A stretch of DNA of 61,564 nt, the filler included, from Dugesia japonica (taxonomy: Eukaryota), in the NCBI GenBank assembly GCA_001938525.1. It is 6 parts of 6 records of this genome, joined end to end, with 100 filler letters (N's around TTAATTAATTAA, not from the genome) between each part and the next. Parts side by side here need not be neighbours in the genome. Positions count along the whole stretch, not along the records: positions 8,384 to 17,287 come from MQRL01160466.1; 5 more parts are not named here. One strand, written 5' to 3'. Below, one piece after another: positions 5,880-31,852 of this stretch. Both the position numbers and the translations under genes were made by a program. The stretch's first letter is position 1. The number at the start of each line of letters is the position of its first letter. A model generated the notes under the pieces. That model ran no database searches, was not told the origin of the DNA, and was given only the letters and a program-made list of their open reading frames with translations.

Positions 5880-7255
5880 TAAATGAACGCCATTTCATAC
5901 ATTTTGTTATTTACAGGAACTGTTGAAAATAACCTCCACCAGCTAATATGCAGGAATCCAATCTTCTCATCATTGAATGACGCATTATTTTGAATACACC
6001 AGGAATGTTCCTTATAAAATTGCGTCCATTGAAAATTCCTTAAATAATCTTCATTTTCCACTGGAGTCTTATAAACTAAAGATTTTAAATGGCCCCATAA
6101 AAAAATTAACCAGATTTAAGTGCGGTGATCAAGCAGGCCATGCGTGAGGTCCACCTCTATCAATCCATCGATCATGATATGTTACATTTAGTGACCCACA
6201 AGCAAGTCTACTAAAATGCGCCGGTGCTCCATCATGCATAAACCACATTATTTTTCTCATTGGCAATGGTATATCCTCAAGCAACTCAGGTAGCCTATCG
6301 TCCAAACAATTAGGGTATACCTCAGCGGTAAGTGTTCCTGGTAGGAAATTACCCACAATTCCAACCCAAACGTTCAATGAGAACTGATATTGGAAACGAT
6401 CTTCACGTATCTCATGTGGATTTTCTTCCGCCCATACATAATTATTATGGAAATTCATTATGGCATTTTTTGAGAAACTTGCTTCATTGGTAAACAGAAT
6501 TTGGCTCAATGAGACAATGTTTGTTTCAGCCATTGAGAAAATGCGATTCGTATAGAAATCTCTGTGTTAAGAAGTGCTTGAAATGGTATGGGAAAAGCTA
6601 AAGATTTTCCACATAGTGTATTTACTTACATTCAATGCGTTTGCAATTATTCTAGTTGAAGTATGTGATCTTCCTGTACCATATCACACACATCTTCTTC
6701 AATTTCTATTATTCTTCCGGTTTTTGGTCTTCCTGGTCCACCATTGTGTTTAAACGTGCCTGTTTTGAGAAGATGCCGATGAATTCCTTCAAAAGGTTCC
6801 CTATCAAGAACATGACGTTTTGGAAATCGTTCGGCGTACAACTGCTTAGCCTTTAATGAATTTCCATTTGCTAACCCATACATAAAATGCATGTCCGTCC
6901 TTCCGGCGTTTGTATATTGATTCGTGATATGAGATTTAGGCATATTCCTAATATTTATTTTATATACATCTAGATTAATTTTAACAAAAATATTTTAATT
7001 AATGTTGATTGATAATAAAGTTATTATGTATAATAAATGTATTGCAACAAATTATATATGAATTACGGATATTGTTATTGGTATTTGTGTTATATTGATA
7101 GTTAAGTTGAAATTATTTGTAAAAAATATTTGTGTTTTTAAAATCTTTTTAGGCGTGTATTTTTGAAACAAAATCATTTTGAAAAGAAATAATAATGTAC
7201 AAACTTCCAAGGAATAATCCCTTAAATTTTTGTCCCATGTTTTACTAACACCCTG
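5880..7255 (-). mobile_element. Tc1/mariner-superfamily element with a frameshifted transposase and one TIR
   Basis: ORFs 6647-6943 (DMHFMYGLANGNS..YAERFP HTH region) and 6129-6533 (FTNEASF..WFMHDGAPAH..GGPHAWP). TA+CAGGGTGTT TIR on the minus strand ends at 7255. Confidence 0.85.
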
Positions 7256-8383: not shown

Positions 8384-8638
8384 TCGCTACTGGTATTGAT
8401 GATCGCATTGTTAGAAATATTTAAATGATTTTCAGGCAGAAAGCCACTTCCAAGGTTCAGTAAGGAAGAGGCGAAATCTCATATTATAAAATATGGAACC
8501 GTTAAATACAAATTGTCTGAAAAATATAAATCTGATTCCAAATTGAAATCTTTGATTGATTCTTGTGTGAAACAAAATCCTGATGAAAGATGCCCAATAG
8601 GAAAATTGAAAGAAATTAAAAATTTCATTTCAGATTGA
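8384..8638 (+). CDS. Protein kinase, C-terminal part (subdomains IX-XI), truncated by contig start; intron 8393-8435
   Basis: Splicing a 43-nt GT..AG intron gives ATG|RKPLPRFSKEEAKSHIIK...LKSLIDSCVKQNPDERCPIGKLKEIKNFISD*. Confidence 0.6.
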
Positions 8639-8719
8639 AATTATTATTAATTATTTTTCTTTAGAAATAAGTATTACATTTTCTTTGTTTATTTGTTTTA
8701 ATTAAGTTACATCTACGTT

Positions 8720-9575
8720 TACATCTCAAACATTTTAGCTGGCTGTGTATTTTTCGTTCCTTCCTTCGTTTTTGTTGTCAACATTTTAGCTTTTTGGCAT
8801 GTTATACAGCTTCGGACAACCTCTTGTATTTTACTCCACAAAAGTTTCGCTTAAAATTTATGCTTCATATACGCTGCTACTTTTTCTGTTCCAGAATGAC
8901 ATAATTGATGGTGTATCCTCATTATAACCTCTTCTATTTTATCATCAGATATCCACTTTTGGGATCTTCATGTGATATTAGACATTGTGCACATGCATCT
9001 AATTTACTCCTTGAATACATATCCGTAATTACATGAAGCGATCTTTTTCTATATTACAATGTTATATCAAAACTGGTCAAATAATTAATCCAAGTTTGAA
9101 ACTGTGATGTGAATGGTTTCTTGATATTTAGCATAAAGTCATAGCTTTATGGTTTGTTCTAAGATAAATCTCTTTCCATATAAGTAATGTTTGAAATGAA
9201 TAAAAAAGTAATAAATTGCGAGTAATGCTTTTCTTGTAGTACAATATCCTTTTTCATGACTCGTCATTGCGTGTGACCCATATACAATTACTCTTTCTTG
9301 TCCATTGTTGTCCTTTGGAGATAGTACGGCCCCAATCGTATCAAAACTCGCATCCGTATCTGAAATAAATTTTCTATTTATATCTGAAAAACTTAATATT
9401 AGAAGCATCATTAGTGCTTGTTTCATTCCATTAAAATCTTTTTCTAAGTCGTTTGTCTATTCAATCTTCATGTTACAATGCCCACTATACAGTTGTTCCA
9501 GAAATCTAGCTTTTTTCGAATAATTTTTAATAAACTTGCGATAGTAAATGCAAATTTTCAAAAACCTTCTGATCT
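8720..9575 (-). mobile_element. Ty3/Gypsy pol fragment (RT connection, RNase H, integrase zinc finger)
   Basis: DTDASFDTIGAVLS..YCTTRKALLAIYYF..HFKHYLYG and HHQLCHSG..CITCQ. Closely similar to the element at 58560-61564. Confidence 0.85.
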
Positions 9576-10569
9576 TCTTTTTTTATCTTTATTTTTTTGA
9601 ATTTTTTTTAAATATTTTTTTTTAATTTTTTTTATTAATTTTTTCAAAATTTTTTTTACATATTTTATTTTTTTTTTTAATTTTTAAAAAAATTTTTTAT
9701 TTTCCCCGTCCACTTTTAAATTTTTATTTGTTTTCTGATGAGTTATACTTTTTTTGAACATTTTTTAATCACAAACTAAAATGATGGAAAGTATTGAATA
9801 ATAATTTCTGCATTAGACTGTATGGACATGGCTCATCTCCGATTTATAAAAATGCCCTCAGATTTTGAAGATGGGTATTTCAAACTGGGGAAAAACGGAA
9901 ATTGTACTGCCGAAAAAATTGATTGATAGATTATTTGCCATAATAAACGACCTGAAACATGTCAAAATACAATTTGGGGTAATGGTGGAATTGGTTAAGG
10001 AAATCGAGACAAAAACTTGCAGATTATCGAATCGTGCAGTACCACTTACAAATGATTTTTTCGCGGAGGGCGTGAAACAGTTAAATGAAAAAATAACCAT
10101 CTGAAGTGAGCTGGGATCAAGTTGGATTCTCAGCCGTATATTAGAAATAAATTTAAAAATAACGAAAATATCCAATGTGTCGGCTGTCAGGAAGTGAATT
10201 CATTGAAACACCAAAAAATTTAAATAAAAAACGGGCTTTTGTAAACGTATTCAACAAAAATGGCAACAAGTGTTTCTTGTACAGCATACTTGCTCAAAAA
10301 GGATGAGGTCGATGAAAATCATAGATACAGGGCCAATCAATATGATAGATGCATGTCAGAATTGAAGTATGATGAGGCGGATTTGCTGATGAAATTAGAA
10401 GACATTAGTAAGTTTGAAGAAGAAAATTTGCAAAATGGCTAAAAGAACAAGGGGGATGGGAAACACTATATCCCATTAAAGGAGAGGAAATAAATAGAGA
10501 ACCTGTCAATATTTCTCAGCAAGAAAGTGATGTTAGAAATTTGATTAATAAAAATAAAATTAAAGGCAG

Positions 10570-12180
10570 TCAATCTTTCATTAGTACAGTGATACTGATA
10601 ATAACTCTGTTATTAGATTTAGCAAAAGACACCAATGCTACTATAAGCTATAGCTTATGATTGTAGTAAACCCGTTTGGGGTAAAAATATATATATAATT
10701 GGACATAGAAAATTGTCTCGAAGCTCACCCAGCAAACATAAAAATATCCAATCTCGTAATTATGCAAGTTTATCAAGAATCTGAATTCACTCAAACAGAA
10801 GCAAGAGAATGTATTGTTAAATATTCGGAGGAAGTGTTCTATTGTGATAGTTCTCAATCAGTACCGTTAGTACCAAGTTGGTCACCAGAAGCAGTAATAT
10901 TGTGATAAAGCGTTTGAAAACAAAGAAATAACAGTACATGAAAAACTTTAATTAGAACCGAGAATTAGAGTGAAAGTAAGACAATCAAAAAATATAGTTG
11001 GATGGTCATCCGGAGGAGGATGGTGCAAAGGAGGTAATTACTATTTGTGAGGCAAAACCAACTATAATAGATTATATATATCTACAGAACTTATTAAAGC
11101 CTCTAAAGATCAAGTAGATAAATTAGACATCAAACTAGCTTCATATTTTAATAATAAACTTGATTTTGCATATCATAATTTGATATACCAAATGAAAAAA
11201 CTATATGACGAAACAATATCAAGGGATTGTAAAGTAATTAGAAAATTGTTTTGCACAAAAATGGCACTGGTTTACACTAATCCAGATTTAATGTCTCCAA
11301 TATTGTTCGAGGAAACGGGAACTTTTTGGAGAATTGTAGGCAAAGAACTACTAACGTTTAAATGTAAAATAGCAAAAGTTACTCTAACGGATCACCCAAA
11401 ATGCGCAAATGAACTGCTAGTAATACATAATAATAAAAAGGTCTTTTTATTACCTGTGGCACGGATTTTAACGTATGAAAATTATAAACCTAAAGAAATC
11501 AATAAATGTAGTAATGTTCTTGATTTACTATAGAAACAAAATGATGATATTTAGATCACAGCTTCAGATGGTAAATAGCAAAAAAGCCTGCCGTATTAGA
11601 AATGAGGGAGCTACAAAGAAAAATGACATTTGATAGACAAGACGATATAGAAAATACCGGTATATATACTCAAGAAGACATAGAGAAAGCTAGAAAAAAT
11701 ATTCTTTTCCCTATAGTAAGAGAAAGAGTAATATCAATAATGATTGATAAAATCCATAAATGAGGCAAAGTAGATGATATTCATTTTGAATCATTGTTGC
11801 ATGTAGATTACTAAAAAAGAGCTATACAAGATTTTATTGATAACTTTCTGGGTAAAACACAAGCAATCGGCGGTATATTTTCATTCTTTTTATTAATATA
11901 TTATGTTTCAATATTATTAAAATTAGCATGTCACCAACTAATATCATTAAAACCATTACATTCATTTTTTGGTGTTACATGGAAACTAGGAGCATGCGTA
12001 TGCTCATTTATTGCAAAACATTTAATCATGCAAAAACATCATGTTAAAATCAGTAAACCAGAAAGACAAAATCAAACACACACAATTGATTTATCAAACC
12101 GAGATGAAAACATAGAGTTCAATAATCATGAAAATAAATCCTATCAATCAGAAACACATAAACTTAATGAATTAAAATAA
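10570..12180 (+). pseudogene. env: Chuvirus/herpes-gB-like class III fusion glycoprotein (env), frameshifted
   Basis: Hydrophobic leader FISTVILIITLLL, then IAYDC (10650-10664), QVYQ..ECIVKYSEEVFYC, GGWCKGGNY, LYDETISRDC..NPD..G..KC..KCANEL..FLLPVARIL..C, and a C-terminal TM segment IGGIFSFFLLIYYVSILL. Confidence 0.8.
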
Positions 12181-12242
12181 AATTTTGAAAATGAAAAGTT
12201 AATAAAATATACCGCACCTAAAAAATTGCAAGACATATATAT

Positions 12243-15200
12243 GTGATAAATGGAGATACTCCTAGACCTACTATGATAATATCAATAAATGGATATAACT
12301 TACTTTCATTAATATATACTGGAGCAGCATGCTCAATAATTAAAAAACTATTTCTTAACAAAAAACAACAAGAAAATCTTGATACGAGACTTTCAGGAAT
12401 TAAAATCATTTACGGGTCATTATTACCTATAAAAGGGATAATAGACTGTAATATTACCATAGGAAATGAGAATATACAGCACCCATTCCGAGTTGTACAT
12501 CAAGGAGTACAGGATTGTATTTTGGGAAGGGATTTACTATAAAAATTGACAGGATACGTTATAGATTTACAAAATAATAAATTATCAAAATCAGCCCCAG
12601 TAAATAATAAAAAAGCAAATAACCATTTATATTTAAAGTCTAATGCAAAAATAGAATATTCATGCGAATGTATAATGCCCGTAAAATTAGGGTTCCATAG
12701 TGAAAATACTTATTTTTTTAAACCAAATAATCATTTAGAGAAAATATTTAATATATCAATAGTACTCGGATGTTTTGTGCCAAAAGAGGGAAACATGCCT
12801 ATAAGAATTGTTAATTATAATAATCAAAATGTTAATCTTCGTCCAGGTATGAAATTAGGTAAACTTTATGTAAAAAACGAGGATTGCGAAATAAACGAAA
12901 TTACCATTAAGAATAATAACCCCATAAAACAAAAACAAATAGTAAAAGAAATCAAAATCATACGTAAGCAAACAAAGTTTTATGATAAAACTAAAATAAC
13001 CAATAGTAATCTATCAGCGCTTCAACGACAAAAATTACAAGCAGTAATAGATAAATATGAAGAAGATTTAGCAATATATGAATTTGATATGGGCGAATCA
13101 GATATTATACAACATACCATCGACACAGGTAATGCTAAACTAATTAAACAAAGGTCATATGTTGCACCATATAAATTGATAGAAGACGTTAAGCGGCAAA
13201 AAAAATAAAAAGATTATGGAATAATAGTACAAAGCTTTTCTCCATGGGTATCACCAGTAGTGCCAATAAAGAAATAAATTAGAATGTGTGTAGATTATCG
13301 AAAACTAAATGAAGTTACCAAAAAAGATACGCATCCTTTCCCCAAAATACAAGAGCAATTTAATAAATTAAGTAAAGCACTATGATTCGCTTTATTTGAC
13401 GCCAATTTATTTGTTCTAAAAGTGTTATTACATGATAGAGAAAAGACTGCATTTGTTACCGAAGATGGGTTATACGAGTTTACAAGAATGCCATTTGGTT
13501 TAACAAACACACCATCCTCATTTTAGAGATTGATGAATACAGTACTGATAGATGTGGAACATGTAATAGTATATATGGACGATATTTTGATAGCATCAGA
13601 ATAATTTGAGCAACATTTAATAAACATAGAAAATATAATGTCTTGATTGCAAAAGGCAAATATTAAATTAAAGCCAAGAAAAAGCAAATGGGCGTTAGAA
13701 CAAGTATTATTTTTAGGTCATATTGTCTCATCAAAAAGGTTTACAACCGAATCCAGATAAAATAGAAGCAGTAAAGAATTTCCCAATACCAAAAACAGTA
13801 CAACAACTATAGAGGCCATAATGGATTAGTTGGATATTATCGAAGATTCGTAAAGGATTTTGCTAAAATATCTGCCCCGCTAGTGGAGTTAACGAAAGGC
13901 TTAAAAACAAAAGAAGAAAGTAAAAATGTGATGATCACTGATAAAATCGACGAAAGCTCAGCAAAATTACAAAATCTATGGTGAAACAATCAACAGGAAG
14001 ATTTTGATATGTTAAAAGAAAAACTAATAACAGTACCAATATTGAGATACCCAGACTTTGATAAACCATTTGTAATTATGACAGACGCAAGCGGATACGC
14101 AGCTGGAGCAGTTCTCGGACAAGAGAAAGAGAAAAATGAAGACTATGTAATTGCAAATGCAAGTAAAATGGTAAAAGGAGCAGAAACTAGATATTCAACA
14201 ATTGAAAAGGAGTGTTATGCAACAATATATGCATTGAAATAGTTTCGACCATTCATTTATGGAACAGAGATTTCTATACAGACAGACCACAAACCACTCG
14301 AAGGTTTGTAGAAAAGCAAAGATACATCCAGCCGAATATTTAAATGGGCTATAAAAATTCAGGATATGAAAATAATAATTAAATACAAACCCGGAAGTGC
14401 TAACATAAATGCAGATGCACTATCAAGAATTCCTAATATAAAAGACCTAGAAACAATAGAGTTAATGGCTATAATAACTATATAGATAAATGATAAAAGT
14501 TTCTCAGATGAACAGAAAAAGGATAAAATCATCAAATCAATACGAAATAATCTCAATGAAAATACAAAATACACAATATATAAGAATCTACTTGTATATG
14601 ACAATATGGGAAAATACTTATGGGTTGTACTTGATTCACTGAAGCAGATGTTACTTCTTCAATACCATCACGGTGCCCTTGGTAGACATTTATAAAGTAG
14701 AAAAACAGCATCTAGAAATATTATTCTCAAAATTTGCAGGAAGAAGTAAAACAATGGTGTAAAGCTTGTTCAATATGCGCAACCAGAAAAAACACTGGAA
14801 CCAAAACAAAAGTACCACTTAATTCAATGCCAGTACCAAGTTCACCAATGGAAATATGTGCTATAGATTTCCTAAGCAAAATACCAACTACAATAAAAGG
14901 CAATAAACATATCTAGGTATTTAACGATTACTTTACAAAATAGGCTGAAGCATTCCCCAACAAGGACGAATCACCCAAAACAGTCGCAAAACTATTAGTG
15001 GAAAAGATTATTTTCAAATATGGAGCACCCAAAAAATTACTATCAGACAGAGGTAGAAATTCCTTTAGCGAAACAGTTAAAAGAGTCAACGAAATGTTTA
15101 ATATTCAAAAGATAAATACTTCAGCATACCACCCACAGACNNNNNNNNNNNNNGAAAGATTTAATAGTACATTATGCAACAGACTATCAGTATTTGTTAA

Positions 15201-15285
15201 TAAAAATCAAAACGATTGGGATTTATTTATCAAACCAGAACTATTTGCTCACAATACAACAGAATTTATAGAATTTTTATGGTAA
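12243..15285 (+). pseudogene. pol: Gypsy pol: aspartic protease, dUTPase-like spacer, RT, RNase H, integrase (many stops and frameshifts)
   Basis: LIYTGA (D>Y) and CILGRDLL; RMCVDYRKLN, RMPFGL, YMDD; [18 protein letters not shown]; HHGALG..CSIC, LLSDRG, TSAYHPQ..ERFN. Confidence 0.92.
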
Positions 15286-15399
15286 TGAGAATCTAATTAT
15301 AAATTAGTCTATCCGATAGAGAATTTCATTTTGAGTTAGAAAAACATGGTTACAAATCGTCACATTGTATACATAAAAAGTTATAAAAGAAAAACAAAG

Positions 15400-15960
15400 T
15401 GAAAAAATAGTCACTCATAGGAATCAAACTACCACTGATGAGTTGTAAAAAAACTGCTATTACCATTGGACCATGCAGTAATTGAATATATTTCAAAAAT
15501 CATTATTAATACGTATAAAAAATAATCAAACTTTATAATTGACGAAATAAATTAAAAACAAGTACTAATTATGGGTTGCTCTCATGGATAATTATAGTCT
15601 CTAATGATGAACCATCAAATTTTGAAAAAATAAAANNNNNNNNNNNNNNNNNNNNNNNNNNNNNNNNNNNNNNNNGAATGTTTTACTGATTCTGAATATC
15701 ATCATCTTAAATCACCAAACTTTATAAGAGACTGGTAAAATCCGAAAAAACAGTGTAAAAAAAATGGTCATTCATTGGATTCGAACCCACCACAAATGAT
15801 TTGTACAAGGAAGTTCTTACCAATGAACCATTCATCGAATTAGAATCTTTTGAAATATTAGTATTAATACGAAAAAAGACGTCAAACTTTATCATTAACG
15901 GAATAAAATTAAAACATTACTTATTATGCGTTGTTATTATGGATAATTGTAATCTCTAAT
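15400..15960 (-). repeat. Two degenerate ~360-bp tandem units with a tRNA-derived Pol III core (SINE-like or tRNA pseudogene)
   Basis: Minus strand 15765-15830 has A-box-like TGGTTCATTGG, B-box GGTTCGAATCC, ends in CCA and is followed by a T-run. A diverged copy lies at ~15409-15475, and 15481-15605 aligns by eye with 15841-15960. Confidence 0.55.
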
Positions 15961-16889
15961 TAGCCAAGTTGGATGGTTGGTGAAAATCTAATGAAATCCA
16001 AGAAAGGTTATGGAACTTAAGACAATTTACACATTTTAAAACTTAGTCTTTGTAATTTTTAAACCAAGTCAAATTTAATTTTGAAATTTGAAAAGTTTAC
16101 ATTTATTGCAAACAATGAATATAAACAAGATTTATTAAAAATGTTAATATAATTAACTATTAATTTAAATTAAAATATATGCATCATTCATATTATTTAA
16201 CCATTAATTCAAATTAAAATCATAAGTAACACAATACCAAAATCAATTAAAATTAAGTAAAACTAACCGGATTTGGTTTTCATCATACAATTATTTTCAA
16301 TCTTCATCATAACATTTGGTCGAATATTTCATTTTTTTAAATATTTAAATTAAGTCTGTTCAAAAATTAAAGAATTCACTTATTTTTTATCTGAATTTTA
16401 AAATTATGATGAAATAAAATTTGTTCATATAAAATGATAAAACACATGTTTTTTAATTAATTTGATGCGATTAAACAAACATAAAATACATTAATATTAG
16501 TATAATAATTGTCAAGTTTTTATCTTAAATGAAATAAATCAAAAGGCAAGTACTTCATATATGTAATTTTTTAGTAATAATAAATTATGGGTGATTCCGA
16601 ACAGTAGTAATGTCAAAATTATATATCAGTAATACTTTTTGACTCGTTTAAACTCCTTTATGTGATAATTTATTCTTTATTGGTATTTTGTCACACATAT
16701 TGGTTTTCTCACTGTTCACTGGTCTTCGATAATCAGTGCTCTGATCCCAGTGTTCAGACATCAAAACTCTGATAGCTGTGCACTGGCTTCATTCCTCAAT
16801 ACTCTCCTCAATATGCACTGATCTTGAGTTGTTGATGGTTAGTTATCGATGATAGTGAGAATTGTAAATGTTAGTAGCTGAAAATAGTG

Positions 16890-17170
16890 AGTATTGTGTA
16901 TGTTAAGACATTGATGATAGCGAGTATTTTTAAGGATGAAATACTTTCGTTTAATAATTTCAAAATTGAAGGTGGAAATGGATCTTATCTTTACAAAGCA
17001 ATAATTGAAACTATAATAAATTATAATGGAGATAGTAAGAATATATGTCTTCCAGCAATGGGATATGGATCAGATACAGATAGAAAAAAGTCTATTAAAA
17101 TATCAAAACAATTGGTTCTATGCGGTTCATTGCAACCTGATTTCATGGATCAACCGAAGTACCAATAAAA
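16890..17170 (+). pseudogene. Isolated Polinton/Maverick major capsid protein fragment (different lineage from 23249-24516)
   Basis: IASIFKD..SFNN..YLYKAIIETIINY..DSK..LCGSLQPDFMDQPKY resembles the SLF..YPYRAYIETLLNY..G.LH.DLF.Q.KY pattern of Polinton MCPs. Confidence 0.7.
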
Positions 17171-17623
17171 TATACCAATTCATCAAATTTAATAAAAACA
17201 TTCAATACATTCAACTTATTTGTTTCATCAAGATTACTTGATTAATAAATTTAATGCATTTTATGTATTGATTTTGATTATTTTTCGNNNNNNNNNNNNN
17301 NNNNNNNNNNNNNNNNNNNNNNNNNNNNNNNTTAATTAATTAANNNNNNNNNNNNNNNNNNNNNNNNNNNNNNNNNNNNNNNNNNNNGGTTCCAACTAAA
17401 ATTTGTGCAATTTTTATTCCATCATCGGCGGCGCTTCATTTAGCATAAAATTTTCGGTAGTGTTTTATTTTATCATTTATAAAATATAGGTCATTTTCAA
17501 AATTTTTAATTCTTAGAGATGACAATTTTGATTTTAGGTCTTCAAGTGTATAATTACTTATTTCATGTTGATAATTTTTTAAATCTGGATACAAGGATTC
17601 TTCTGCCATTTTCTTAAAGGTTT

Positions 17624-18909
17624 TTATAATTCATCAAAAAATTTTTTTCTTTGATCTTTAGGACAACCATGAAGAATAATAAGGTTATTAATATAAATAT
17701 TCGCTGGTAAAATTAAATGAATTTTTTTTATTTTAACACTTTCTATTATATTACCAACAACTTCTTCTTTTTTAGTCTCATCAAAGATTTCATAACCGCT
17801 TTTACCTCCCACTAAATTTAGGGTGTTTATTTCTAATTTAAATTTTCCTAGTTTTTCAAATGTAAAATCTACTCTCTCATTAGAACCAATAAAATTAATA
17901 GCAACACTAAATTTAGGTATTTTTGTATATCCTCCAACAAAAACACATATTGGACCAACTTCTTTTTTTGCTGTAAAATAAAGTTTTAAAGGACCACCAA
18001 GAAAAAAAATAGTTTTTCATTATGATATTCCCAAAAACCATTTATTATTACTTTTTCTAATAATACGTAAATTTTTTCAATAGAATAATATGGAAATTTC
18101 TTTTCATTTTTAAGTAAAAAAAACATTTTAAAACATATATATATTTCTAAGTAAACATCACTCCATAGTAAATAATTATCAACTAATTCTTTAAATTTTT
18201 CTAATGACTCTGGAGATTTAATTGTTTTAAATATTTCTAAATTTTTATTAATTTTTTTTACATGTTCTGGGTGAAGAGGATTTTTAATCTTTTGATATTC
18301 CTCTTCCCAAGGAAATAAAGGATCAAATTGTTTTTTTTAAATAAAAATTTGTTTTTTTAAATTTTCAATTTCTTTTCTTAAAACTTCAATTTCTTCTTTT
18401 TTGATTTTAGGATCAATTTTTTTTAAACTTTCAACATCANCTTTCATTTGCAAGAAAAACTTNAAAATAAATTTTTTGAGAAATTTATAATTTACTAGAN
18501 CATCTTCATCTTTAGGGTCATCAGGAATTTTTATTTTCTTAATATTTTTTAAATTTACAGCATCAAGATTGTGTTTAGGATCATCAGTAATTTTTAAGGT
18601 TTTAATAGTGTCACTAGTCACACTTACAAATTTACTTTCACTAAGTAAATCAGCTAATTTTAATTTATCAATTTCTTTTTTTAAACCAGTGTAAAGAATG
18701 ATAATACTTTTTTGCTCGTTTTTGAGAAATTTTAAATTTACTGCATCCTGATCATCTTTAGCTGAATCAATAATTTTTAAAGTTTTAATAGTGTCACCTT
18801 TTTCATTTACAAATCTTTTTTCATTACTTGCATCTTGTATTCTTAATTTTGCAGAAAAAGTATTAATAATGTTTTTTTCATTCCTCGCCTGTAAGCGCTT
18901 TCCATACAT
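17624..18909 (-). pseudogene. Polinton fibre/spike-like protein (repeat stalk plus beta-rich C-terminal part), interrupted
   Basis: Three repeats of the type IKTLKI.D.(A/P)K...DAVNLKFLK in 18337-18909, followed by a downstream beta-rich frame to 17624. Confidence 0.5.
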
Positions 18910-19316
18910 TTATGTTCATTTATTTCAGCAATAATATCATCAAAAGATTTTTCTGGAAAGCTATATAAAAAATAAATACAAAGTACTCCACAAATTCTTG
19001 TTTCAAAAGGTTGAACTTGAATTTCATTAAATTTTTCAACATGCTTCTCAAGATCTTCATGAAATGGTTTTAAACCAAAAGAGTCAAAATAATGTTTATT
19101 CTTCATTGTTACCCAATGAGTTCAATTTTGATTTGTATTTTGATAATTAAAAATATAATTCATATCATTTTCAAAATTATCTGGCAACTCATTTTTCATG
19201 TAAATTTCCAATGGTATTTTTAAAAAGTTGTCAATGGAATAAAGATCAAAATTTGTAGTTGTAGTAATTCCAAATGTTTTTAGAAAATTTAAGATTTCTG
19301 GTTTATCATCGGACAT
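18843..19316 (-). pseudogene. Adenain-like (C5) maturation cysteine protease with one in-frame TGA at 19122-19124
   Basis: QN*THWV (G>stop in GTHW), YFDSFG and QVQ..ICGVLC supply the H/D/Q/C catalytic residues. Confidence 0.9.
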
Positions 19317-19920
19317 TTTCTTAAATGAACTAATAAAGACATTGTTTCATTATTAAAATCAATAGGTTTAAAATTTTCATCGACAACTTCAAATCTTAGA
19401 CCATCAATATAACTAGAAGATATTCTCGAGTAAATAAGTAGTGATGGTCTTTCAATAATTTTATATCCAAAGTTTACAGTGTTTGTTGGAAATGAAAATA
19501 ATAAATTAGTTGGTTTGTTATTTACATAATTTCCTTTAACTATATTACAAATAATGTTAATCATATTTATATCAGAAATGTTAATTTTTTCATTTGAATT
19601 ATATTTTCCAGATAGATACTTACCAGGTTTAAAACCTAAAAGTTTAGAAAAGAAAGATTTTTCATCAAATTTTAAAGTCTTATTTTCGGGAATAACAAGT
19701 AAAGATTTACCAGTTGAGGTATCTGCGGTTATCTCTATTTCTAAATATTTTATTTTCTCTGAAATTTCATCAACCTCATAAGCACTTGGGTGAATTTTTT
19801 CCTCCTTCCCATCAAATGTAAAATTAACATCTTCTTTTTCTATATTAAAAATAATATTATAAACAGAAAAGCAAATTAAACCAATTTCATATTCTTCTTT
19901 CAAGTCTAATGGGTGTCTTA
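19289..19920 (-). CDS. Polinton minor capsid protein (penton, single jelly roll)
   Basis: YEIGL..YN.IFNI, INIICNIVKGNYVN, GYKIIERP..LIY, VVDEN.KPIDFNNE..LHLR. Confidence 0.88.
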
Positions 19921-19979
19921 AATTATTTATTATTATTTATTTATTATTATTATTTATTATTATTTTATTTCTTAGTATT

Positions 19980-20700
19980 ATTTATTTAAAGTATTTTTTT
20001 TGATAAATTTTATATTTCTCATTTGAAATTAATTTCCTTGCTCTTAATTTTCCACAGATTGATTTAATAGCCTCATCAGTATTTTCATGACCGGATTTTT
20101 TAGCTGAAATTAAAACTATTAATTTTTCAAATAAATCTATTGCCGTGCCTTGTCCTTGAATAGCTGGTTGTTGTAGTGGGTGTAATATTGGTTGTGTTCC
20201 AATTTTTTTTTTCTTTTTTTAGGGGTTTTTTCTGGAGTTTTTGGTTCTACTTTTTTTTTAATATTTGATAATAATTGCTGTTGTAGGGGTGTGTAATCTT
20301 TAAACCAAATAAATAAATATTAACATCTTCTGTTTTTATATCATCAGTACATTTCCTAAAATTAAATTCATTGCTCCATCTGAATATGGAATAAGAGTAT
20401 CTGGAAGTATAAAAAATTTTGGTTCTGTATTTACCAAGACTAAATATATGTTTCTAATATTAATTTTTATTATTAAATAGGTTTTTACTGAAATGATTTC
20501 ATTAAAAAATTCTGGGATTGTTGTTGGAGTTAAATTATTAATATTAGGTTTCATTTCAATAGTTGGAATAAATGGATTTTTATTTTCAAATAATGTCTAC
20601 TTGTATTTTTGTTTGAGTATCCATTTCCAAAGTTGGAGGTTTTGGTATTAAAGGTGTTGGTTGTAATTGTTGTAATGCTGAAATTGTTGGTTGTTGTTAA
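19980..20700 (-). pseudogene. Polinton conserved uncharacterised protein, fragmented
   Basis: C-terminal GQG..DLFEKLIVLISAKKSGHENTDEAIKSICGKL pattern that I recognise from Maverick ORFs. Confidence 0.5.
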
Positions 20701-20947
20701 AGAGTTAGTGAAGATAGTAGGTTTTTACATTGGAGAACTTTACTAGAGAAATATTCATTATATTTTTCATCGGCTGCAATTATTTCTTTTAATTCTTTAA
20801 TTCTACTTGATAATATCACTTCACTCGCCACTCTCGCCATTTTAATAAGGTTTTTAATATAAACCATCGCCATAAGGTCGTAAATATATTCCTCCACCCT
20901 TTTTTTAATTCTTTCGATGATTTTAATTTTTGATTTTTTAAATATTC

Positions 20948-21298
20948 TTAAATAGCTTCACCCGGTTGTTTGTTTATATTTTCTATTTCAATTTCTCTTT
21001 CTTCTCGCTCTTCATTTATGTTATCAATTTCAATTTGTTTTTTATGTGATTCACGAGAGTGTGAAACGGTAGATGCAATTTTACTAGATATANNNNNNNN
21101 NNNNNNNNNNNNNNNNNNNNNNNNNNNNNNNNNNNNNNNNNNNNNNNNNNNNNNNNNNNNNNTTTTTTGATGTTTTTTAATTTCTTCTTTTGCTTTTTTA
21201 CCTATCCAATAATTTTTACCATCAATTTGAATAGACTTACTAAGATTTGAATTTAATAATTTTTTTAATTCTTCTTCTGTGATTGTCGCTTCGCCCAT
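20948..21298 (-). CDS. Polinton small core or membrane-active-type protein (centre masked)
   Basis: KKAKEEIKKHQK-[N]-SKIASTVSHSRESHKKQIE; position within the morphogenetic module. Confidence 0.4.
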   Translation of the reverse strand: MGEATITEEELKKLLNSNLSKSIQIDGKNYWIGKKAKEEIKKHQKXXXXXXXXXXXXXXXXXXXXXXXXISSKIASTVSHSRESHKKQIEIDNINEEREEREIEIENINKQPGEAI

Positions 21299-21299
21299 T

Positions 21300-22210
21300 T
21301 TATTTAGCAAATAAATCAGTTGTCATTTCATTTGTTAGTTGATTTAAATAAAAATATGTATAGGGTTCTTTCCAATGAAAATTTACTTCAAAATCATAAT
21401 TATCTTTTTGAAGAAATACATTTGAAAATAAATCACTATAAACACTATCACGATCTTTTTAATTTAATCGAAAAAATATAAAACAATTTGCATTACCTCT
21501 TATTGAATTTTTATCAAGGTGAAAATATGTTTGTGAAATATAAATTACATTACAATTTGAATGNCGACCTCGAGTGAAATAACTTTTTTGAATTTCTTGA
21601 TTTTTTTCCTTTACAACATCATCAAAAATTACAAGATTTTTTTTTATTTTTTTTAATCGATCACAGGGAATAATATCAGTTGGTTTATTACTTAGAATTA
21701 TTTATATTGCTTGTGGTCTTTTTGTTACAAATTTCTTTTCAATGAAAAATTTTATAACTTCTATTGGAGTAGTACATGAATCAGGAATAATCCCCTACTT
21801 ATCAAATATGAATATTATTTCTTGTTTTGTTAATCCATTTAAAAATNNNNNNNNNNNNNNNNNNNNNNNNNNNNNNNNNNNNNNNNNNNNNNNNNNTTCA
21901 TTTACAACATCATCAAAAATTACAAGATTTTTTTATTATTTTTAATCGATCACAAGGAATAATATCATTTGGTTTATAACTTAGAATTATTTCTATTGCC
22001 TGCGGTTTTTTTATTACAAAATATTTTTGAATGAAAAAATTTATAACCTCAAATAGTGGAGTACACGAATCTGGAACAATCGCTTGCTTCTCAAACATTA
22101 GTAGAATTTCTTGTTTTGTTAAACCATTTAAAAATCCATGATATCATAATTGTACTTCAAATTGATAAATTGTAGTCGAGTAAAAAACAAGAGTGTCGTA
22201 ATCGAGNNNN
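21300..22210 (-). pseudogene. A32/FtsK-like packaging ATPase with an internal tandem duplication; Walker A region falls in an N run
   Basis: Walker B LVIFDD (twice), YFTRGRHSNCNVIYISQTYFHLDKNSIRGNAN. Confidence 0.9.
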
Positions 22211-22355
22211 NNNNNNNNNNNNNNNNNNNNNNNNNNNNNNNNNNNNNNNNNNNNNNNNNNNNNNNNNNNNNNNNNNNNNNNNNNNNNNNNNNNNNNNNNN
22301 NNNNNNNNNNNNNNNNNNNNNNNNNNNNNNNNNNNNNNNNNNNNNNNNNNNNNNN

Positions 22356-22830
22356 TAAAGAAGTTTTTTGTAACTCATTCTCATTAAATCTTCCAAGAAT
22401 TTTTTTATCATCATCATCGGTGATTTGATAAGTTAGTGTACGATTAAATCTTTCAATGACAACTGCCTTTCCTTGATTATAAGTAGAATAGCGGTTAATA
22501 CTATTTTCTTTACAACAGGTGTTAAATGATGTGTTGTAAAATTCCTTTCCACGATCAACCCATAAATTATTTGGAGCTTGAAAATTTTTTCTAGAATTTT
22601 TTCAAATGCATTGGTAACCACCCCAGCGGTTTTTTTATCACAAAGTTCTACAAACGCAAATCTTGTATAAAGATCGATAACTGTTAGTATTACTTTTTAT
22701 TATGGAAAGTTAAATCTTCCAACCAAGTTTCATCGGGTTCACTGTTACTTTTAACAATTCTCTCGGTTTTTTATAATCACGATGAAGCTCATCTGCTATA
22801 CCTTGTCAAATTAATATTTTACCCTTTATT
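22356..22830 (-). pseudogene. Retroviral-like (rve) integrase of the Polinton, frameshifted and internally deleted
   Basis: IADELH, LTVIDLYTRFAF, LWVDRGKEFYN and KAVVIERFNRTL, joined directly to the C-terminal TYQITD..ILGRFNENELQKT. Confidence 0.9.
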
Positions 22831-23230
22831 GCTGTTTTTACAAGAGCTCTTTGAAATTTTTCTGCTATTGTAGGATTTTCAATATTATCCAAGTCGTATT
22901 TAATTTACATCCGCAATCTGTCGATCTCTAAGATCTTCTGANNNNNNNNNNNNNNNNNNNNNNNNNNNNNNNNNNNNNNNNNNNNNNNNNNNNNNNNNNN
23001 NNNNNNNNNNNNNNNNNNNNNNNNNNNNNNNNNNNNNNNNNNNNNNNNNNNNNNNNNNNNNNNNNNNNACCGAATAAATGTCTTTCACCTGGATATTTTT
23101 ACCAAGTAAATGGTTTTAAAATATTACTTACAAAACTTGATGATTGAAGATCCCCGCCGCCTTTACAAAGTTTTACATGCCTAGCTTTATTTTTTTTAAT
23201 AAAGTTCTATTACATTTTTCACATGTAAAT
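22810..23230 (-). pseudogene. Phospholipase A2-like (PLA2X-type) virion protein with an N-terminal zinc finger; core masked
   Basis: CEKC..RHVKLC then KYPGERHLF-[N]-EDLRDRQIAD..ENPTIAEKFQRALVKTAIKGK. Catalytic HD motif is not visible. Confidence 0.6.
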
Positions 23231-23248
23231 TTAGTTAATTTAATTATT

Positions 23249-24516
23249 TTATTTATTAAAAAATTTAACACCTCTCACATTTTCAACCATGGCAATTTTA
23301 TTATTTGCTAATTTCATTTCTTTATATTTTTCCTCAACAATGCACCAGTAAAGACTTCCGGTAAAATCTGGATCCTTTGTAATGTGAAGTGTAACATCAA
23401 CATTATTTATATTTAATCTATCAACTTTAGCTGTTACATCAAAACAGAAAATTGGATATAATTCGCCAAATTCTTGAAGGGATAATTGTGGTTCTGTGAA
23501 AAAGTATTGACAACATTATATATAATTAAAATAAGGATAAATCATTTCATTATTTGTCATATCAAATTTACATTCATTAATTGGATAGTAATTATTATTT
23601 AACTGAATTTGNNNNNNNNNNNNNNNNNNNNNNNNNNNNNNNNNNNNNNNNNNNNNNNNNNNNNNNNNNNNNNTTTTTGTTTTCTTTTGAATAAATAAAT
23701 TATTATTATTTGCAAAAGAAATCTCTTCATTTTTTATCACTATAAAAACATATCTTGGTTTATATGAAAGATTGCTGATTTTGTAAGATGAATAATTTCC
23801 AGAATCTAATGACATCTTTTCTGTTATTCTATTTAAAAATATAACTTTGATTGGTTTGTCTGTTGAAATTCTTTCTAAAAGCATTAATTCCATTTTAGGT
23901 GTTAATCTACATTCTGGAATGTGAAGTTCGAGAGTTAGCAATTTTATTTTTGGTGTGACTTCTCTTTTAAATAAAAATTTATCCTCTAATTGTCGATTGC
24001 AACAAAATTCAATCTTTGTGTTGTAAAGAACTCGGTTAAAATTTTGGATGAATCCAAATAAAATTCTCAATGGAAAATAACCTTCAAATTTTTTACTTTT
24101 GTATAATTTTTTTCTTCGCTCTTCATCTAAAACCCATCCTGATAATTCTCCATATATTTTTCTGTGAGTATAACTTGTTGTAATAAAATTTAACATTGTT
24201 GATATTGTGCAAGATCATTAATAGTTTCTACATNNNNNNNNNNNNNNNNNNNNNNNNNNNNNNNNNNNNNNNNNNNNNNNNNNNNNNNNNNNNNGGTTGC
24301 TGTTTTATCAGCTTCATTTTCTGTTTCTATTTTAAAGTATAACATTGCATTACAAATATCTAATGGATTCGTGGATTGTAAAGATTGAAAAAATATATCT
24401 CCACCTCCTATCATATTATTTATTGAACCAGATGTTGGTGAAATTTTTAAAATGTCATTTTTTAATAATTCATGAGTAAAAATAATATTATTATCAAGAT
24501 TTATTTTTCCTTCCAT
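23249..24516 (-). pseudogene. Polinton major capsid protein (double jelly roll), frameshifted
   Basis: ORFs 24190-24516 and 23516-24196 plus tail: FPLRILFGFIQNFNRVL, KPRYVFI, QIQLNNNYYP, YPIFCFDVT. Confidence 0.88.
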
Positions 24517-25223
24517 TTTCTATAGCAATTTTTTTAAACTGTTTAATAGTTTTATTGCGTCACTTGCTCCCACACATTTTCTTCTACAATTACCATCACC
24601 GTCACTATTCCTACTATTACAATTAGCATCACTATTACAATTCCTACTATTGCTATTACTATGGAATTTTTTTTCAAGCCTATCTTCTAATGAAATAAAT
24701 CTTCCATTTGAATCTCCTTCCATTAAAGTTTTTGTTGTTCTTTTGTTGAAAGGAATGTTAAATTTAATTATATGTTTTTATTGTTTTTTCATTAAATGAG
24801 TTAAGTTTACAAAAAATCTTTTATTGAATTTTTTTTAAAATTATAATTTTTCATCATTGTGTGTAAAACCGTCTCGGGCATTTTTTATAATATTTTTTTG
24901 GCTGATGCTCTAAGTATTCCTAGGCATGTTGTTGGGACTTTCATACGTTTAAATTTTTCAGTAATTTTTTCCTTCCCTTCTAAATTATTAAAAAAATTTA
25001 TAATCTCTTTTTGTGAAAGTCGCTTTCTACCATCTTTTAATGTAAATGAAAAAGTAATATCCTTATAATTAGTTATTATTGGTTTTCTTTTTTTAAAATT
25101 AAGCATTAAATACATTCCCTACATTCGTTTTCTATTTTTTGAAAAATAAAAACATTCATTTCTGATTTAAATGCCTTCTTGTCTTTTTCTATTATTTTTT
25201 TTTTCATTTAGTTTTTTATATAT

Positions 25224-26026
25224 TTAATTAAGGTTAATTAAGGTTTCTTCTATTATATCTTTTGTTAATTTATTTTTTCTATATTCTTTAATTTTATCAA
25301 GATTTATATCTTCATCAATTAAATTATTAATTGTCTCAAGTAAAACATCTAACCCTATTTCTTTTTCTACTGTCATTTTCTAAAGCTTAAAAACCACTTA
25401 CTTCAAAGGCAACTTTTGCTCCCACACGTTTTCTTTTCTTTCTTTAAAATTTTAAATCAAGGTCTTGATAAATTATCTTTTCAGATTTTAATTCTTCATT
25501 TAATTTTTTTAAGGCTACATTATGTTCATCTCGCTCTTTTTGTGCAATTTTTTTTACTTTTTTATTTTTCGGCTAAAAACAAGATTATATCACCCTTACA
25601 CTTGCCATCTGTTAATGAAGAAATAAAAGTTGTTGCTAGCGCATTAAAGTTTTTCTTTTCATTTTCAGCTATATCTTGTTGATTAATTTTCTTTTGCAGC
25701 TCACAAAGATTTGCTAAATATTCATCTGCTATATCTACTGTTAATTTATTTTTTCTATATTCTCCAATTTCATTTAAACTTAGTGCTTCTATACCTCTTA
25801 AATTTTTAAATATATTTAAAATTAATTCTACCCCAATCTCTTTTTTATTNNNNNNNNNNNNNNNNNNNNNNNNNNNNNNNNNNNNNNNNNNNNNNNNNNN
25901 NNNNTCTCTATGCTTTCTAATATTTCTTTGAAATTGAAAACCAAGCGCTTCATAAGGTATTTCTCCACCTCTTAAATTTTGATTTAAAATTATTACCAGC
26001 CTAACTTCTTTTTTTCCCGCTGCCAT
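25224..26026 (-). CDS. Two paralogous uncharacterised Polinton ORFs (25562-26026 and 25224-25376)
   Basis: KKEIGVELILNIFKNL..KNKLTVDIADEYLANL versus EKEIGLDVLLETINNL..KNKLTKDIIEETLINL. Confidence 0.45.
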
Positions 26027-26125
26027 TTTCTAAAGAAATAATTCAGCAATAAAATACTTTTCAGGTATGTTTAAATATTTTGTTTTTAGTTTGGTTTTTT
26101 CCAACACACTAAAAATATGAAAATA

Positions 26126-26568
26126 TAGAAAATATAAAATTTTTAATCGATAAAAATGGCTGCTAATAATATTATTGAAAGTGACTTTATAAATTCTTTT
26201 AAAATGAGTTAATACAAACTAAGAGTGAAAATAAAAATTTGAAGAAAAAAATATTGGAATAAATTTGTTATTATTATTAATATTTTAGTAATCGTAATCT
26301 TATATTAATCGAATACTAATCGAATAGTAATCGAATAGTAATCGTAATTGTATAGTAATCGTAATCGTAAAGGTATTGTAAAAATTTTTATTAATAAAAT
26401 GGTTAGTAATAAAGAAAGTGATTTTTACTCTTAAAAAGTTATAATTTTATGGAAAACCCTATTTCAAAGTTTTGTAAAGAAAATAATTTNAATGAAAAAA
26501 CAGTAACAAAATATTTAANAGANTTTAACATTCCTTATAATAGAAAAAATTATATTAAAATTTCAGAA
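26126..26568 (+). repeat. Internal inverted copy of the subterminal segment 31418-31852, including an 11-nt tandem array
   Basis: Reverse complement aligns along ~440 bp, from TAGAAAATATAAAAT..ATGGCTGCTAATAAT to ..TATTAAAATTTCAGAA. Confidence 0.93.
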
Positions 26569-26569
26569 T

Positions 26570-29500
26570 GTCTTTTATCTAACTTATTAATTTCTCGATC
26601 AGTATCGCTTTCGGCTTGAGCTTCCCGATATTCATAAGCATAACTTTTTGATTTAATAAAATCACATTTAATTATTTCATTATTAGGTTTTTCATCTTTC
26701 ATTCAACTTTTGTTAAATTATTTCTACCTATTATTTCTAAGAAAATTGAATATGTATAATGTATTTGTACAATGTATCTGAATAATGTATTTTATACTTA
26801 TTTGGAATTGCATTATCTAACTGATTATAAATAAAATCATATTTAACTTCTTTGGCATATTCTAAAATAGTAAAACCAATGTATGGGAATTTATTATATT
26901 TTAATTTAGATTGTCTTAAATGAATAGCTGATGTTTCTGCGATTCCAGTTTCTGTACATATAAATATTTTACTAGATCTAAAGTTTATTTTTGAAGCAAA
27001 CCTTTGATAATCTTTGTCTGTTCCAACTATTTCTACATTACATCTTTTCTAATATCTTTTAATGTTTTACCATAAAAAGCATTATTTAATAATTTGAAAA
27101 AAAAGAAATCTCCAAATACATTGTTTGTTCTTTTTGATTCNTTTCTCTGACCAATGTTAAATTGTTTATAATCTTTTAACCAAGGTATTGTAGAAAGGAT
27201 ATATTTCGAATGTATTTTCTTAATTTTCATTCCTAATTTTAAATATAAATATAATGTAGAACCCAAAACAATATAATTTTGTTTATTAAATTGATTTAAT
27301 GTTAGTTTAATATTTTTCTTACTTAATTTTTTTAAAATGATAATTGATATGGTCCTAACATTTCTTCTTTAATATTTATTCGATCTGGAGCTAATAGAAA
27401 GTATTTTGTCTTTTCATGAATTTCAGGTGGATATTCTAAATCAACTTCATAAATGTAATTAATTTCTGCGTTTGATTTTCTATATATTTAATCTTTTGAT
27501 TCAACTATTTCTCCTGTAGGTGAAGGTTTTGTCATGCAAGATACATATAAAGAATTCTCATCTAAATATTTTAAAAATGTATCTTCAAAATAATCTTGTG
27601 AAAATATTTGTTTTCCTTGTAATAATAAATTTAATAAATCATTCATTTCACCTTGATTTACTCTTTTATATTTTGGATTTTTAATATTATTATGACTAAA
27701 TACTTGTCCTTCTGCACAAACTCCTGAGAAACCACCTTTAACACCTCTTTCTATTTTTAGGTATAAATTATATGTATTTTCTTGAGCATATTTTAATTTT
27801 TGCTTTGCCAATTTCATTCCTGCCGCCCAAGTTAGACCTGGAGCTGAGTAACAATAACATGGATCTATGTTATAATTAATTAAACAAATATCTCTAAAAT
27901 TTTAAAAGAAATCAGCTAAAATAATTACATCTAATCTTATATAAAACATCATATAATCAAACAAATTTCCAAATTGATTAAAGTCTTGTAATAATTCATT
28001 GTATTCTTGTTCAGTTATTTTTTGTTGTTTTAGTTTATTGTTAAAATCTTCTTTTGTAGGAACCTTTTGACTTTTTAATAATTTAATTACTTGATTAATA
28101 TCATTTCCTTTTACATATTCATATGGAAATGATATTTTCTTTGGTTTGAGATTAAATTATCTTAAATGATTATATTTTCTTGATTGATTTAATCAATTGT
28201 GTCGATCGATTTAAATGGACACATTCTTCCCGAATCTAAAAATCTGATGTATCGCAATTTAAAGGAAATGTAAACTTCATCTGTATGTGGAACTATTCTT
28301 TTTACTACTGTTGGATATTTTGTTAATAATTCTTTAAAAAATAGATGATTATCATAACCAAATGCATTGTGAAAATAAAAAGGTATAAATAATTCTTTTA
28401 TAGATTTATCTTGTAAATTACAATTTGAATGAGCATAACCTCTGAATTCCCCATTAAAATGGTCATGATCTATTACTAGATTTTCAGTTATATTTTTATT
28501 ACAATATCTTATTTTGGATATTCTTCAAAAGTATTGTAAGATTGGCCACCTCTAAAATATTTAATTAATTTATTTTCTTTTATATCAATTAATTTATTAT
28601 TAATATCTTCTAAAAATTGAAAGAACTTGTGGTGTATATTCTCTCCATAAAATTCTTTATATTCATTTTGAATTAAATGTTAATATTTACTTTTGATATA
28701 AATTCCTAGAGATAATGGTTTTTGTTTATTGGTAATTGTACTAGTCCAACTTTCGAAATCTGCATAAATTACAAAAGGTAATTCATTTGAAAAATAATTA
28801 TTTTTAAATGAAAAATATTTATCATTTTTAAAATAACTCTTTAGATGAATCATGATTACTACATTCTTTTTGATGATTAATTAATAAATCTTTACTGTGA
28901 TAACAACTCATAGAGCATAAACACAAATGATTATTATTTTTATTAGTATTTGCAAAAACACTAACATTTATACATAAAATATAATGTCCTTTGTAAAATA
29001 ATAAATTACATTTATTTATTTCTGGTTTAGTATTACTATCATAATGAGAAATATAAACTGGATAGATTTTAGCTTTTTCAGTTACTTCAAATAAGTTTAC
29101 TTTAAAATCATTTAATTTTTCAAATAGTTTAACATCATCAATGCTTTTTGGGAAAATTCATTTGGTGTGGTTCGTTGGATTTTATTTTTAATTCGTTTAA
29201 ATAAGGAGTGTAATTTGAAACTCTATTTGGATCTCGTAATACATGTTTATGAGCTGAAATCGAATATAAAAAACAAAAATCATCTTTATTTTTAATATTA
29301 ATTACACCTGGTTTTATAAATGGTAATTTTTTATACGAAGAACCAACTTTTGATTGATATTTTGAAAGTTCAATTCCATCAACTTTCATTTTGATCTTCA
29401 TCTTCCATAAATCTNTGTAGTTGATTTAATAACTCTTCCACTTTTGATAGTAATTCTTTCATTACTTGAATATGAATTAAATACTCTTTCTTCATCTTCT

Positions 29501-30134
29501 TTAGTATAATTACAATTTACACTCAATCGTAACATCAACTTTTTTGAATAATCAAAATAAATATCAACAATTTTACTAATTTTCTTTTAAACCATGTTAT
29601 TAATTTAAAATTTTATTTTTGTACATGTCTAGTTAATTCAATTTTACTTTCTTTAAAATATTCAATTTTATAATACTTTANNNNNNNNNNNNNNNNNNNN
29701 NNNNNNNNNNNNNNNNNNNNNNNNNNNNNNNNNNNNNNNNNNNNNNNNNNNNNNNNNNNNNNNNNNNNNNNNNNNNNNNNNNNNNNNNNNNNNNNNNNTT
29801 GCTTTTTATGTAAATCGCTGTTGAAATGAAATTTTGCATGATTTTGTCTAGTGAATGTTAAGTTACAGATATTACAAAATAATGGAACTGTACCAGCCCC
29901 AACAGAACAATTTGTGGAGTTTTTATGTAATCTCAAACCTTTTTCACTTACTTATTTTTTGAAACATAAACTACATTCATAAAACATGTTTCTTACTCTT
30001 GTACATGTTTGTGATTGAATATGCGACGACAACCCCACGTTATTTTTAAAAGTTTTGCTACAAACAGACCATTTAAAAATTAACGCCGAAAAACTCATAG
30101 GTCTTTGAAAATTCATTTTATTTGAAGTATTCAT
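26570..30134 (-). pseudogene. polB: Protein-primed family B DNA polymerase with N-terminal C2H2 fingers and an EndoVII/HNH insert; C-terminus truncated
   Basis: INIKNKDDFCFLYSI, VIYADFES (ExoI), DHDHFNGEFRGYAHSNCNL, FHNAFGYD (ExoII), FPYEY, YLDENSLY (motif A), FKLLNNAFYGKT (motif B), KDE..IKSKSYAY. Confidence 0.95.
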
Positions 30135-30169
30135 TTTATAGAGAAATAATTTGATCGATTAAAAAAATA

Positions 30170-30553
30170 ACTTCCTTAAAGGTTCTATATTTCTTTTCTT
30201 TGAGGAATTTCTAGTATTTCAAATGTGTTTGTTTTAATATTAAAAACATAATCACCATCATTATTTTTAACATATTGTTGAGAATGTTCATGAAAAGAAT
30301 ATTTAACTCTAGGATATCTTTTTACTGGTGGTTTTAAATTTAATTCGCTTCAAGTTTTATTTAATGTTCGAATACTTATTCCCATTTCTTTAGCAATGCT
30401 AGAATCTTTTAACTTTAGATTTTCAAAACTTAAATCTTGATATTTTACTGCTAAACAAATCTTTTGAAATTTAACAAATAGTTTTGGATCAAAGTTATGT
30501 GCATAATTAATATAATCAACTACATTATCACTCAAATCATTTTCACTTTCCAT
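30170..30553 (-). pseudogene. Polinton helix-turn-helix DNA-binding protein
   Basis: KDSSIAKEMGISIRTLNKT* followed by in-frame SELNLKPP. Confidence 0.5.
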
Positions 30554-31417: not shown

Positions 31418-31852
31418 TTCTGAAATTTTAATATTTTTTTTCTATTATAAGGAAAATTAAATTCTCTTAAATATTTTGTTACTGTTTTTTCATTTACATT
31501 ATTTTCTTTACAAAACTTTGAAATAGGATTTTCTATAGAATTATAACTTTTTAGGAATTTAAAAAATCACTTTGTTCATTGCTAACCATTTTATTAATAA
31601 AAGTTTTTACAATACCATTACAATTACGATTACTATTCGATTACTATTCGATTACTATTCGATTACTATACGATTACGATTAGGATTACTAAAATATTAA
31701 TAATAATAACAAATTTATTCCTATATATTTTTCTTCAAGTTTTTATTTTCACTCTTAGTTTGTATTAACTCATTTTAAAAGAATTTTTAAAAGTCACTTT
31801 CAATGATATTATTAGCAGCCATTTTTATTGATTAAAGATTTTATATTTTCTA
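31418..31852 (-). repeat. Subterminal segment (TIR-like) with a (CGATTACTATT)n array; inverted partner at 26126-26568
   Basis: Direct sequence comparison; tandem array at ~31620-31690. Confidence 0.93.

Follow-up and report, generated by a model that had tools for sequence, protein, structure and literature searches.

Retrotransposons with env ahead of pol have been described in two groups that come closest to the element reported here. According to the available text of PMC6431247, the Burro/GYPSM1 elements of Dugesiidae planarians are giants of over 30 kb in which env lies in frame between gag and pol, specifically between a BCL2-like domain and the protease (PR), an arrangement termed there the first in-frame env interposed between gag and pol. 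The Burro env matches fusion proteins of mononegaviruses, and the elements bear MATH, BIR and ankyrin cargo and a dUTPase-like domain between PR and reverse transcriptase (RT); this PR-RT linker is kept in Burro, of which decaying fragments lie in Dugesia japonica (PMC6431247). The second group, the GAG-ENV-POL errantiviruses with an HSV/gB-type env, is reported from Platyhelminthes, Nematoda and Bryozoa in the available text of PMC13524379, with six such elements in Schmidtea mediterranea.

We analysed a window of 61,564 nucleotides (filler included) from Dugesia japonica, in which short AT-rich contigs are strung together with N spacers. One 8.9-kb contig, at 8384-17287 with N spacers on both sides, hosts an env-pol copy on the (+) strand that extends from ~10427 to ~15265. 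With a probability of roughly 85%, we read this copy as a decayed and truncated Ty3/gypsy element with a gB-type env before pol, likely descended from a Burro-like ancestor that encoded Gag-Env-PR-RT-RH-IN in one ORF. Pieces matching Pfam-type profiles follow one another in the order env, retroviral aspartyl protease, RT, RNase H (RH) and integrase (IN) core, and the PR-RT-RH-IN order of Ty3/gypsy pol is present. The preliminary description had confined the element to 10570..12545; env and protease do lie there, but the element is wider. Its surviving features are as follows.

10427..10462, +, BH2-like W-x-GGW motif at the 5' end of the surviving part, in the env-leader frame with no intervening stop (probably the final helix of a BCL2-like domain, see below)
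10577..10650, +, hydrophobic segment in frame +2, the internal signal sequence for env, with a counterpart before AYDC in intact ORFs
10650..11053, +, N-terminal part of the env ectodomain (AYDC, domain I), with frameshifts and stops; its 3' end lacks ~126 codons
11054..11874, +, central helix and C-terminal domains of the env ectodomain, broken (PF24664 277-421, 453-508)
11875..11919, +, env transmembrane (TM) anchor, frame +1
11920..12243, +, cytoplasmic tail of env with the linker that leads to the protease; TAA stop at 12178-12180, frameshift break at the end
12243..12548, +, aspartic protease, catalytic Asp lost (PF00077, PF13975, PF09668)
12603..13064, +, PR-RT linker, where Burro has its dUTPase-like domain
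13131..13815, +, reverse transcriptase with YMDD at 13572, stops and frameshifts inside
13823..14420, +, connection and RNase H (PF17919, PF17917)
14560..15264, +, integrase zinc finger and core, by profile match and alignment to relatives

The copy is dead and would yield none of the element's products. We counted 22 stops in six pieces and about eight frame changes along its length, and alignment to relatives showed that ~126 codons (125-127) of env are gone at 11053/11057. At the 3' end, homology ceases inside integrase at ~15265, and none of the 276 proteins of our collected set matches 15266-17287. A repeat search of contig 8384-17287 found no LTR pair, the copy being cut off at both ends, and none of the 276 proteins matches 9700-10620, where gag would lie upstream. 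The search for LTRs and gag suggested in the preliminary description thus found neither on this contig, although gag is present 5' of env in the relatives P0005, P0014, P0022 and L002. The surviving part holds no MATH, BIR or ankyrin domain. We call the element Burro-like and not Burro, since size and cargo lie beyond the reach of an 8.9-kb contig. After the truncated integrase, a pair of ~220-nt repeats, 76% alike, occupies 15390-15605 and 15746-15960 with an N gap between them.

We then examined the glycoprotein. The motifs named earlier are all present, namely the leader at 10577 (+2), IAYDC at 10650 (+3), the TM segment at 11875 (+1), TAA at 12178-12180 and QDIY at 12229-12240 (frame +1). 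The run of motifs from leader to TM therefore stands, but not in a single frame, for four frame changes precede the TM and eight stops fall in the env pieces counted. Profile PF24664 matches the env pieces in order, at profile positions 56-87 (E 0.013), 277-421 (E 2e-20), 453-508 (E 4e-8) and 533-638 (E 1e-9). By tblastn the N-terminal part aligns with relatives at 39-45%, and the best env match, P0002, stands at 43% over the env piece used as query. A model of P0002 (pLDDT 82, from an 83-row alignment) gave herpesvirus gB as its top PDB match (E 4e-14, TM-score about 0.3) and chu-like glycoproteins as its top match in BFVD (E 5e-41, TM-score 0.53). This agrees with the fold proposed beforehand and identifies env as a class III fusogen, the fold being predicted for this relative and not for the broken copy. 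Beyond the TM lies another stretch, mildly hydrophobic, that could alter the topology.

The closest published env that we found, judged by sequence within the available part of PMC13524379, is that of Smed_errantivirus_3, in which 26 of 48 residues of domain I are identical to the copy by eye. This points to a planarian as the likely host. The only VGWS motif in the available supplementary file 2 of that paper is that of Smed_errantivirus_3, and the window has this motif as well. An identity of about 54% indicates a related family and another element, and unlike it our copy is broken. With the GAG-ENV-POL errantiviruses in general the copy shares the env type (PF24664) and the position of env 5' of pol.

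Two further systems bear comparison. Nematode NERVs, reportedly described by Sacco et al. in 2022 (J Gen Virol 103:1739), are said to have a 'continuous gag-env-pro-pol ORF'; as cited in PMC13524379, they too are metaviruses with env before pol, in another host phylum. Mosquito BEL/Pao elements, reportedly described by Dezordi et al. in 2020, are said to carry a chuvirus glycoprotein with env 3' of pol; the glycoprotein family is the same, whereas the pol is of the BEL/Pao type.

At the junction, the frame of the env tail and that of the protease, marked by VINGDTPRP at 12243 and LIYTGA at 12309 (both frame +3), meet at ~12222-12245 beside a short AT run, just where the preliminary description had placed a frame break. 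This meeting point is a frameshift break. Repeat searches found no LTR or other repeat between env and protease, which had been named as a sign of tandem elements. P0282 is collinear with the copy over 11575-12228 and 12222-12632, and a contig of another copy (run X3), about 84% alike, bridges 11908-12344. The protease matches the retroviral aspartyl protease profile at E 2e-4, its motif being without the catalytic Asp; RT gives E 0.05 (a short piece), RNase H E 4e-22 and the integrase core E 0.005. The PR-RT linker is recognized at iE 2e-12 by a profile built from the linkers of relatives, and it yielded no dUTPase match in Pfam or among PDB sequences. From AYDC to YMDD the copy has 973 codons plus ~126 missing, and 1094-1138 codons separate AYDC from YxDD in P0022, P0008, P0288 and P0287, each with a single protease ahead of RT; the spacing from env to RT thus fits that of one-protease relatives.

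To learn how env and pol are joined elsewhere we turned to relatives. A HMMER search with a 160-aa env piece gave 168 matches. Among the 150 listed, 14 exceed 800 aa, of which 11 have a protease, five RT and three Gag, and the other 136 measure 800 aa or less. Since these 136 are short and three of the 14 longer ones lack a protease, the env family occurs alone too, and stand-alone or partial forms make up most of the env matches. In the best 11 env matches among 50%-cluster representatives, a protease follows env in eight, and the remaining three stop within env or shortly behind it. A word-index search with the same env piece found no match, and an Atlas search gave scores of 0.80 only. We searched secondly with the env region of L002, a metagenome locus, against proteins of 2036-6481 aa. 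In all 15 matches, env is immediately followed by a protease within one ORF; RT and integrase are also present in 12, and several start with Gag. In each of the 21 long relatives that we examined, env runs on into protease with no stop between, though this set was selected by length and so favours fused forms. L002 itself is one frame of 3703 aa with Gag (two CCHC knuckles), env, PR, PR, RT, RH and IN; L001, another metagenome locus, is a single frame of 3426 aa open at the 5' end, and no LTRs were found on either. Downstream of the polyprotein both have a DEDD exonuclease ORF (PF00929; L001 10617-12107, L002 12085-13473), which the available text of PMC5408684 also records in rotifer LTR elements. 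One env-pol polyprotein, P0008, is labelled by NCBI as a Flavobacteriaceae MAG protein and is likely animal DNA in a bacterial bin.

Intact ORFs are collinear with the copy from env through integrase, and the best matches of its pol parts (seven for PR plus linker, seven for RT, nine for RNase H, seven for integrase) are without exception env-bearing ORFs or members of their clusters. When PR-RT served as query, a word-index search brought up generic gypsy pols and overlooked the true relatives, as env is present in none of the 120 listed. The RT phylogeny suggested in the preliminary description left the copy unplaced on a long branch when RT was used alone, whereas a tree of RT+RH+IN (51 of 91 rows after removal of near-duplicates; quick search, SH-aLRT only, no bootstrap) put it inside a nine-row env-pol group with an SH-aLRT of 97, and none of 500 shuffles was as clustered. 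The other 42 rows are without env. The tree flags the letter make-up of the copy, and its rows are unnamed ORFs only.

Sequencing runs also bear on the pairing of env and pol. Three runs of organism A yield contigs by the thousand across the whole stretch, with similar summed depth for env and pol (in run X1 a mean of 6,599 for env vs 6,938 for pol, figures that are depth sums and not copy number); other copies thus carry env along with pol, and env-less copies, the finding that would have spoken against the element, did not emerge. RNA run X10 placed 395 reads, of which 356 are below 90% alike and none reaches 99%, so these reads stem from other copies. The copy itself has env and protease in different frames and no gag, so its fusion is inferred from relatives only 30-50% identical to it in sequence; env was very likely fused to pol in the ancestor. 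The ancestral polyprotein proposed earlier is thereby upheld in having env 5' of pol in one ORF, but it likely began with Gag, as Gag-Env-PR-RT-RH-IN.

The alternative that survives best, though improbable, is that env and pol were separate adjoining ORFs, with Pol expressed through frameshifting or splicing where they meet. The two do lie in different frames here, a stop falls 65 nt before the protease, and PMC13524379, in its available part, permitted ENV-POL gaps of up to 2000 nt without stating fusion. Yet with about eight frameshifts and 22 stops throughout the copy, a break at the junction is expected decay, and the uninterrupted passage from env to protease in all 21 long relatives, length-selected as they are, argues for the one-ORF ancestor. 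Far less probable, and largely refuted, is a chuvirus glycoprotein EVE or BEL/Pao env that came to lie beside an env-less gypsy pol by chance or nesting. The contig is indeed a patchwork, with RNase H of another gypsy on the (-) strand at ~8820-9564 and a Maverick-like piece at 10080-10427, but env and pol share the same best-match relatives in collinear order, no LTR was found between them, and another copy bridges the junction. Weakest of all is an assembly chimera at the junction: the assembly is fragmented with N gaps and no listed run contains half of the words, yet the independent X3 contig spans 11908-12344 and the geometry fits intact ORFs. A plain chuvirus EVE, that is, a glycoprotein that stands without any retroelement pol or next to N or L genes, was rejected, for gypsy pol stands directly after env.

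At the 5' end, a BH2-like motif lies 50-85 aa before AYDC in P0002, P0004, P0021, P0278, P0279 and L001, and in P0002 a weak Bcl-2 match (E 0.001) falls at this place. Three such 12-residue motifs occur across all six frames, and the profile score of this one (iE 0.5) is not significant; from its sequence and position, W-x-GGW at 10427-10462 is likely the last helix of Burro's BCL2-like domain. Abutting it, 10080-10427 (+) is identical at 23 of 63 residues to a Maverick protein piece on another contig, with a score of 69 where 2000 shuffles reached 50 at most, and has high summed depth in organism A. We take this piece to be Maverick-like, a label based on motifs and a jelly-roll match on nearby contigs. 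Since it stands directly upstream of the BH2-like motif, gag of the copy was likely lost at this junction.

The other contigs of the window carry Maverick-like, gypsy and further mobile-element pieces. Decayed Maverick/Polinton-like genes fill 17624-31441, with a jelly-roll capsid (PF21738) and, by eye, integrase-like and PolB-like pieces; inverted repeats on these contigs lie at 26126-26549 and 31436-31852. Pieces of a different gypsy family without env, 55% alike in RNase H, are found at 8818-9564 (-) and 58608-60982 (-). On the (+) strand at 39409-41151, a 315-aa Rep/helicase-like ORF without a Pfam match and an SF3-helicase-like ORF (PF00519, E 0.007) are possibly pieces of an endogenous ssDNA virus. 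A Tc1/mariner-like transposase remnant, recognized by eye without a Pfam match, lies at 6129-6994 (-).

Compared with Burro/GYPSM1, the copy likewise has env before PR and a PR-RT linker, and its BH2-like motif before env is a putative counterpart of the BCL2-like domain; it differs in its short distance from TM to PR, its single protease and its lack of gag or LTR. The env-before-pol layout, regarded in the preliminary description as atypical, is thus real but already published in the available texts of PMC6431247 and PMC13524379, and the copy is a previously undescribed decayed member of that published kind.

How would an intact element work? Its one ORF would encode Gag, an internal signal, the Env ectodomain and the TM, followed by Pol on the cytosolic side. 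Gag would be made in the cytosol, whereupon the internal signal would direct Env into the ER and signal peptidase would cut Gag from Env-Pol. The TM would bring the chain back to the cytosol with PR-RT-RH-IN hanging on the Env tail, so that Pol would enter the budding particle via Env and not via a Gag-Pol fusion, and the protease or proteases right behind the tail would free the enzymes. Synthesis of all parts would be 1:1:1, with neither frameshift nor splice. From this topology we infer that Pol would be tethered through the Env tail. In many relatives, two to five protease-like domains stand immediately behind the env tail, an arrangement that would suit cleavage at that point. Repeated proteases reach seven in P0275 and also occur in P0011, P0004, P0006 and P0280-P0286, and several multi-protease relatives have one protease-like domain after integrase.

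The relatives also extend beyond the point at which the copy stops, short of the post-integrase region. Two or more hydrophobic segments follow integrase in 15 of the 18 relatives that reach it, and nine of the 18 match an FN3-like profile, six of which helped to build it and three of which are independent. The cassette consists of a signal, predicted FN3 domain(s), a stalk and a TM, within the polyprotein and after integrase. In the metagenome loci the predicted cassettes lie as follows.

L002 10006-10932, predicted FN3 cassette after integrase
L001 4754-5326 and 9062-10036, predicted FN3 cassettes, one of them between two proteases

A predicted cassette is also present in P0006, P0008, P0273, P0275, P0279, P0281 and P0283, and P0289 has a precomputed Ig domain (PF13927). 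The cassette has no Pfam name. An Atlas search pointed to FN3 at 0.87, and a model of the L002 cassette (four-row alignment, pLDDT 64) matched tandem FN3 structures at E 5e-8 with low TM-scores. A second membrane protein thus appears to end most intact relatives, predicted in L002 to comprise two FN3 domains. A literature search found no Burro-type env retrotransposon with fibronectin, although Grohme 2018, Sacco 2022 and Lee 2026 may describe one, and the word 'fibronectin' is absent from the available main text of PMC13524379; an FN3-type membrane protein after integrase may be new.

In herpes- and paramyxoviruses, binding and fusion are carried out by separate proteins. Tentatively, and with the odds against it, the family polyprotein might be a two-glycoprotein entry machine, in which the predicted class III fusogen precedes Pol and an FN3 membrane protein of host-like type follows integrase. 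The FN3 protein would then act in attachment or as a decoy for a receptor. The chain would pass through the ER membrane four to six times, and packaging of Pol would go by way of the Env tail.

By itself, the copy is one dead fragment among many. The repeated proteases and the predicted FN3 protein of its relatives find no mention in the available texts of PMC6431247 and PMC13524379. An env before pol in one ORF departs from the usual Gag-Pol packaging route and raises the question of how Pol would reach the particle when an ER-translocated Env stands between it and Gag, a question for which the intact ORFs P0006, P0008, P0273, P0277-P0289, L001 and L002 offer material.
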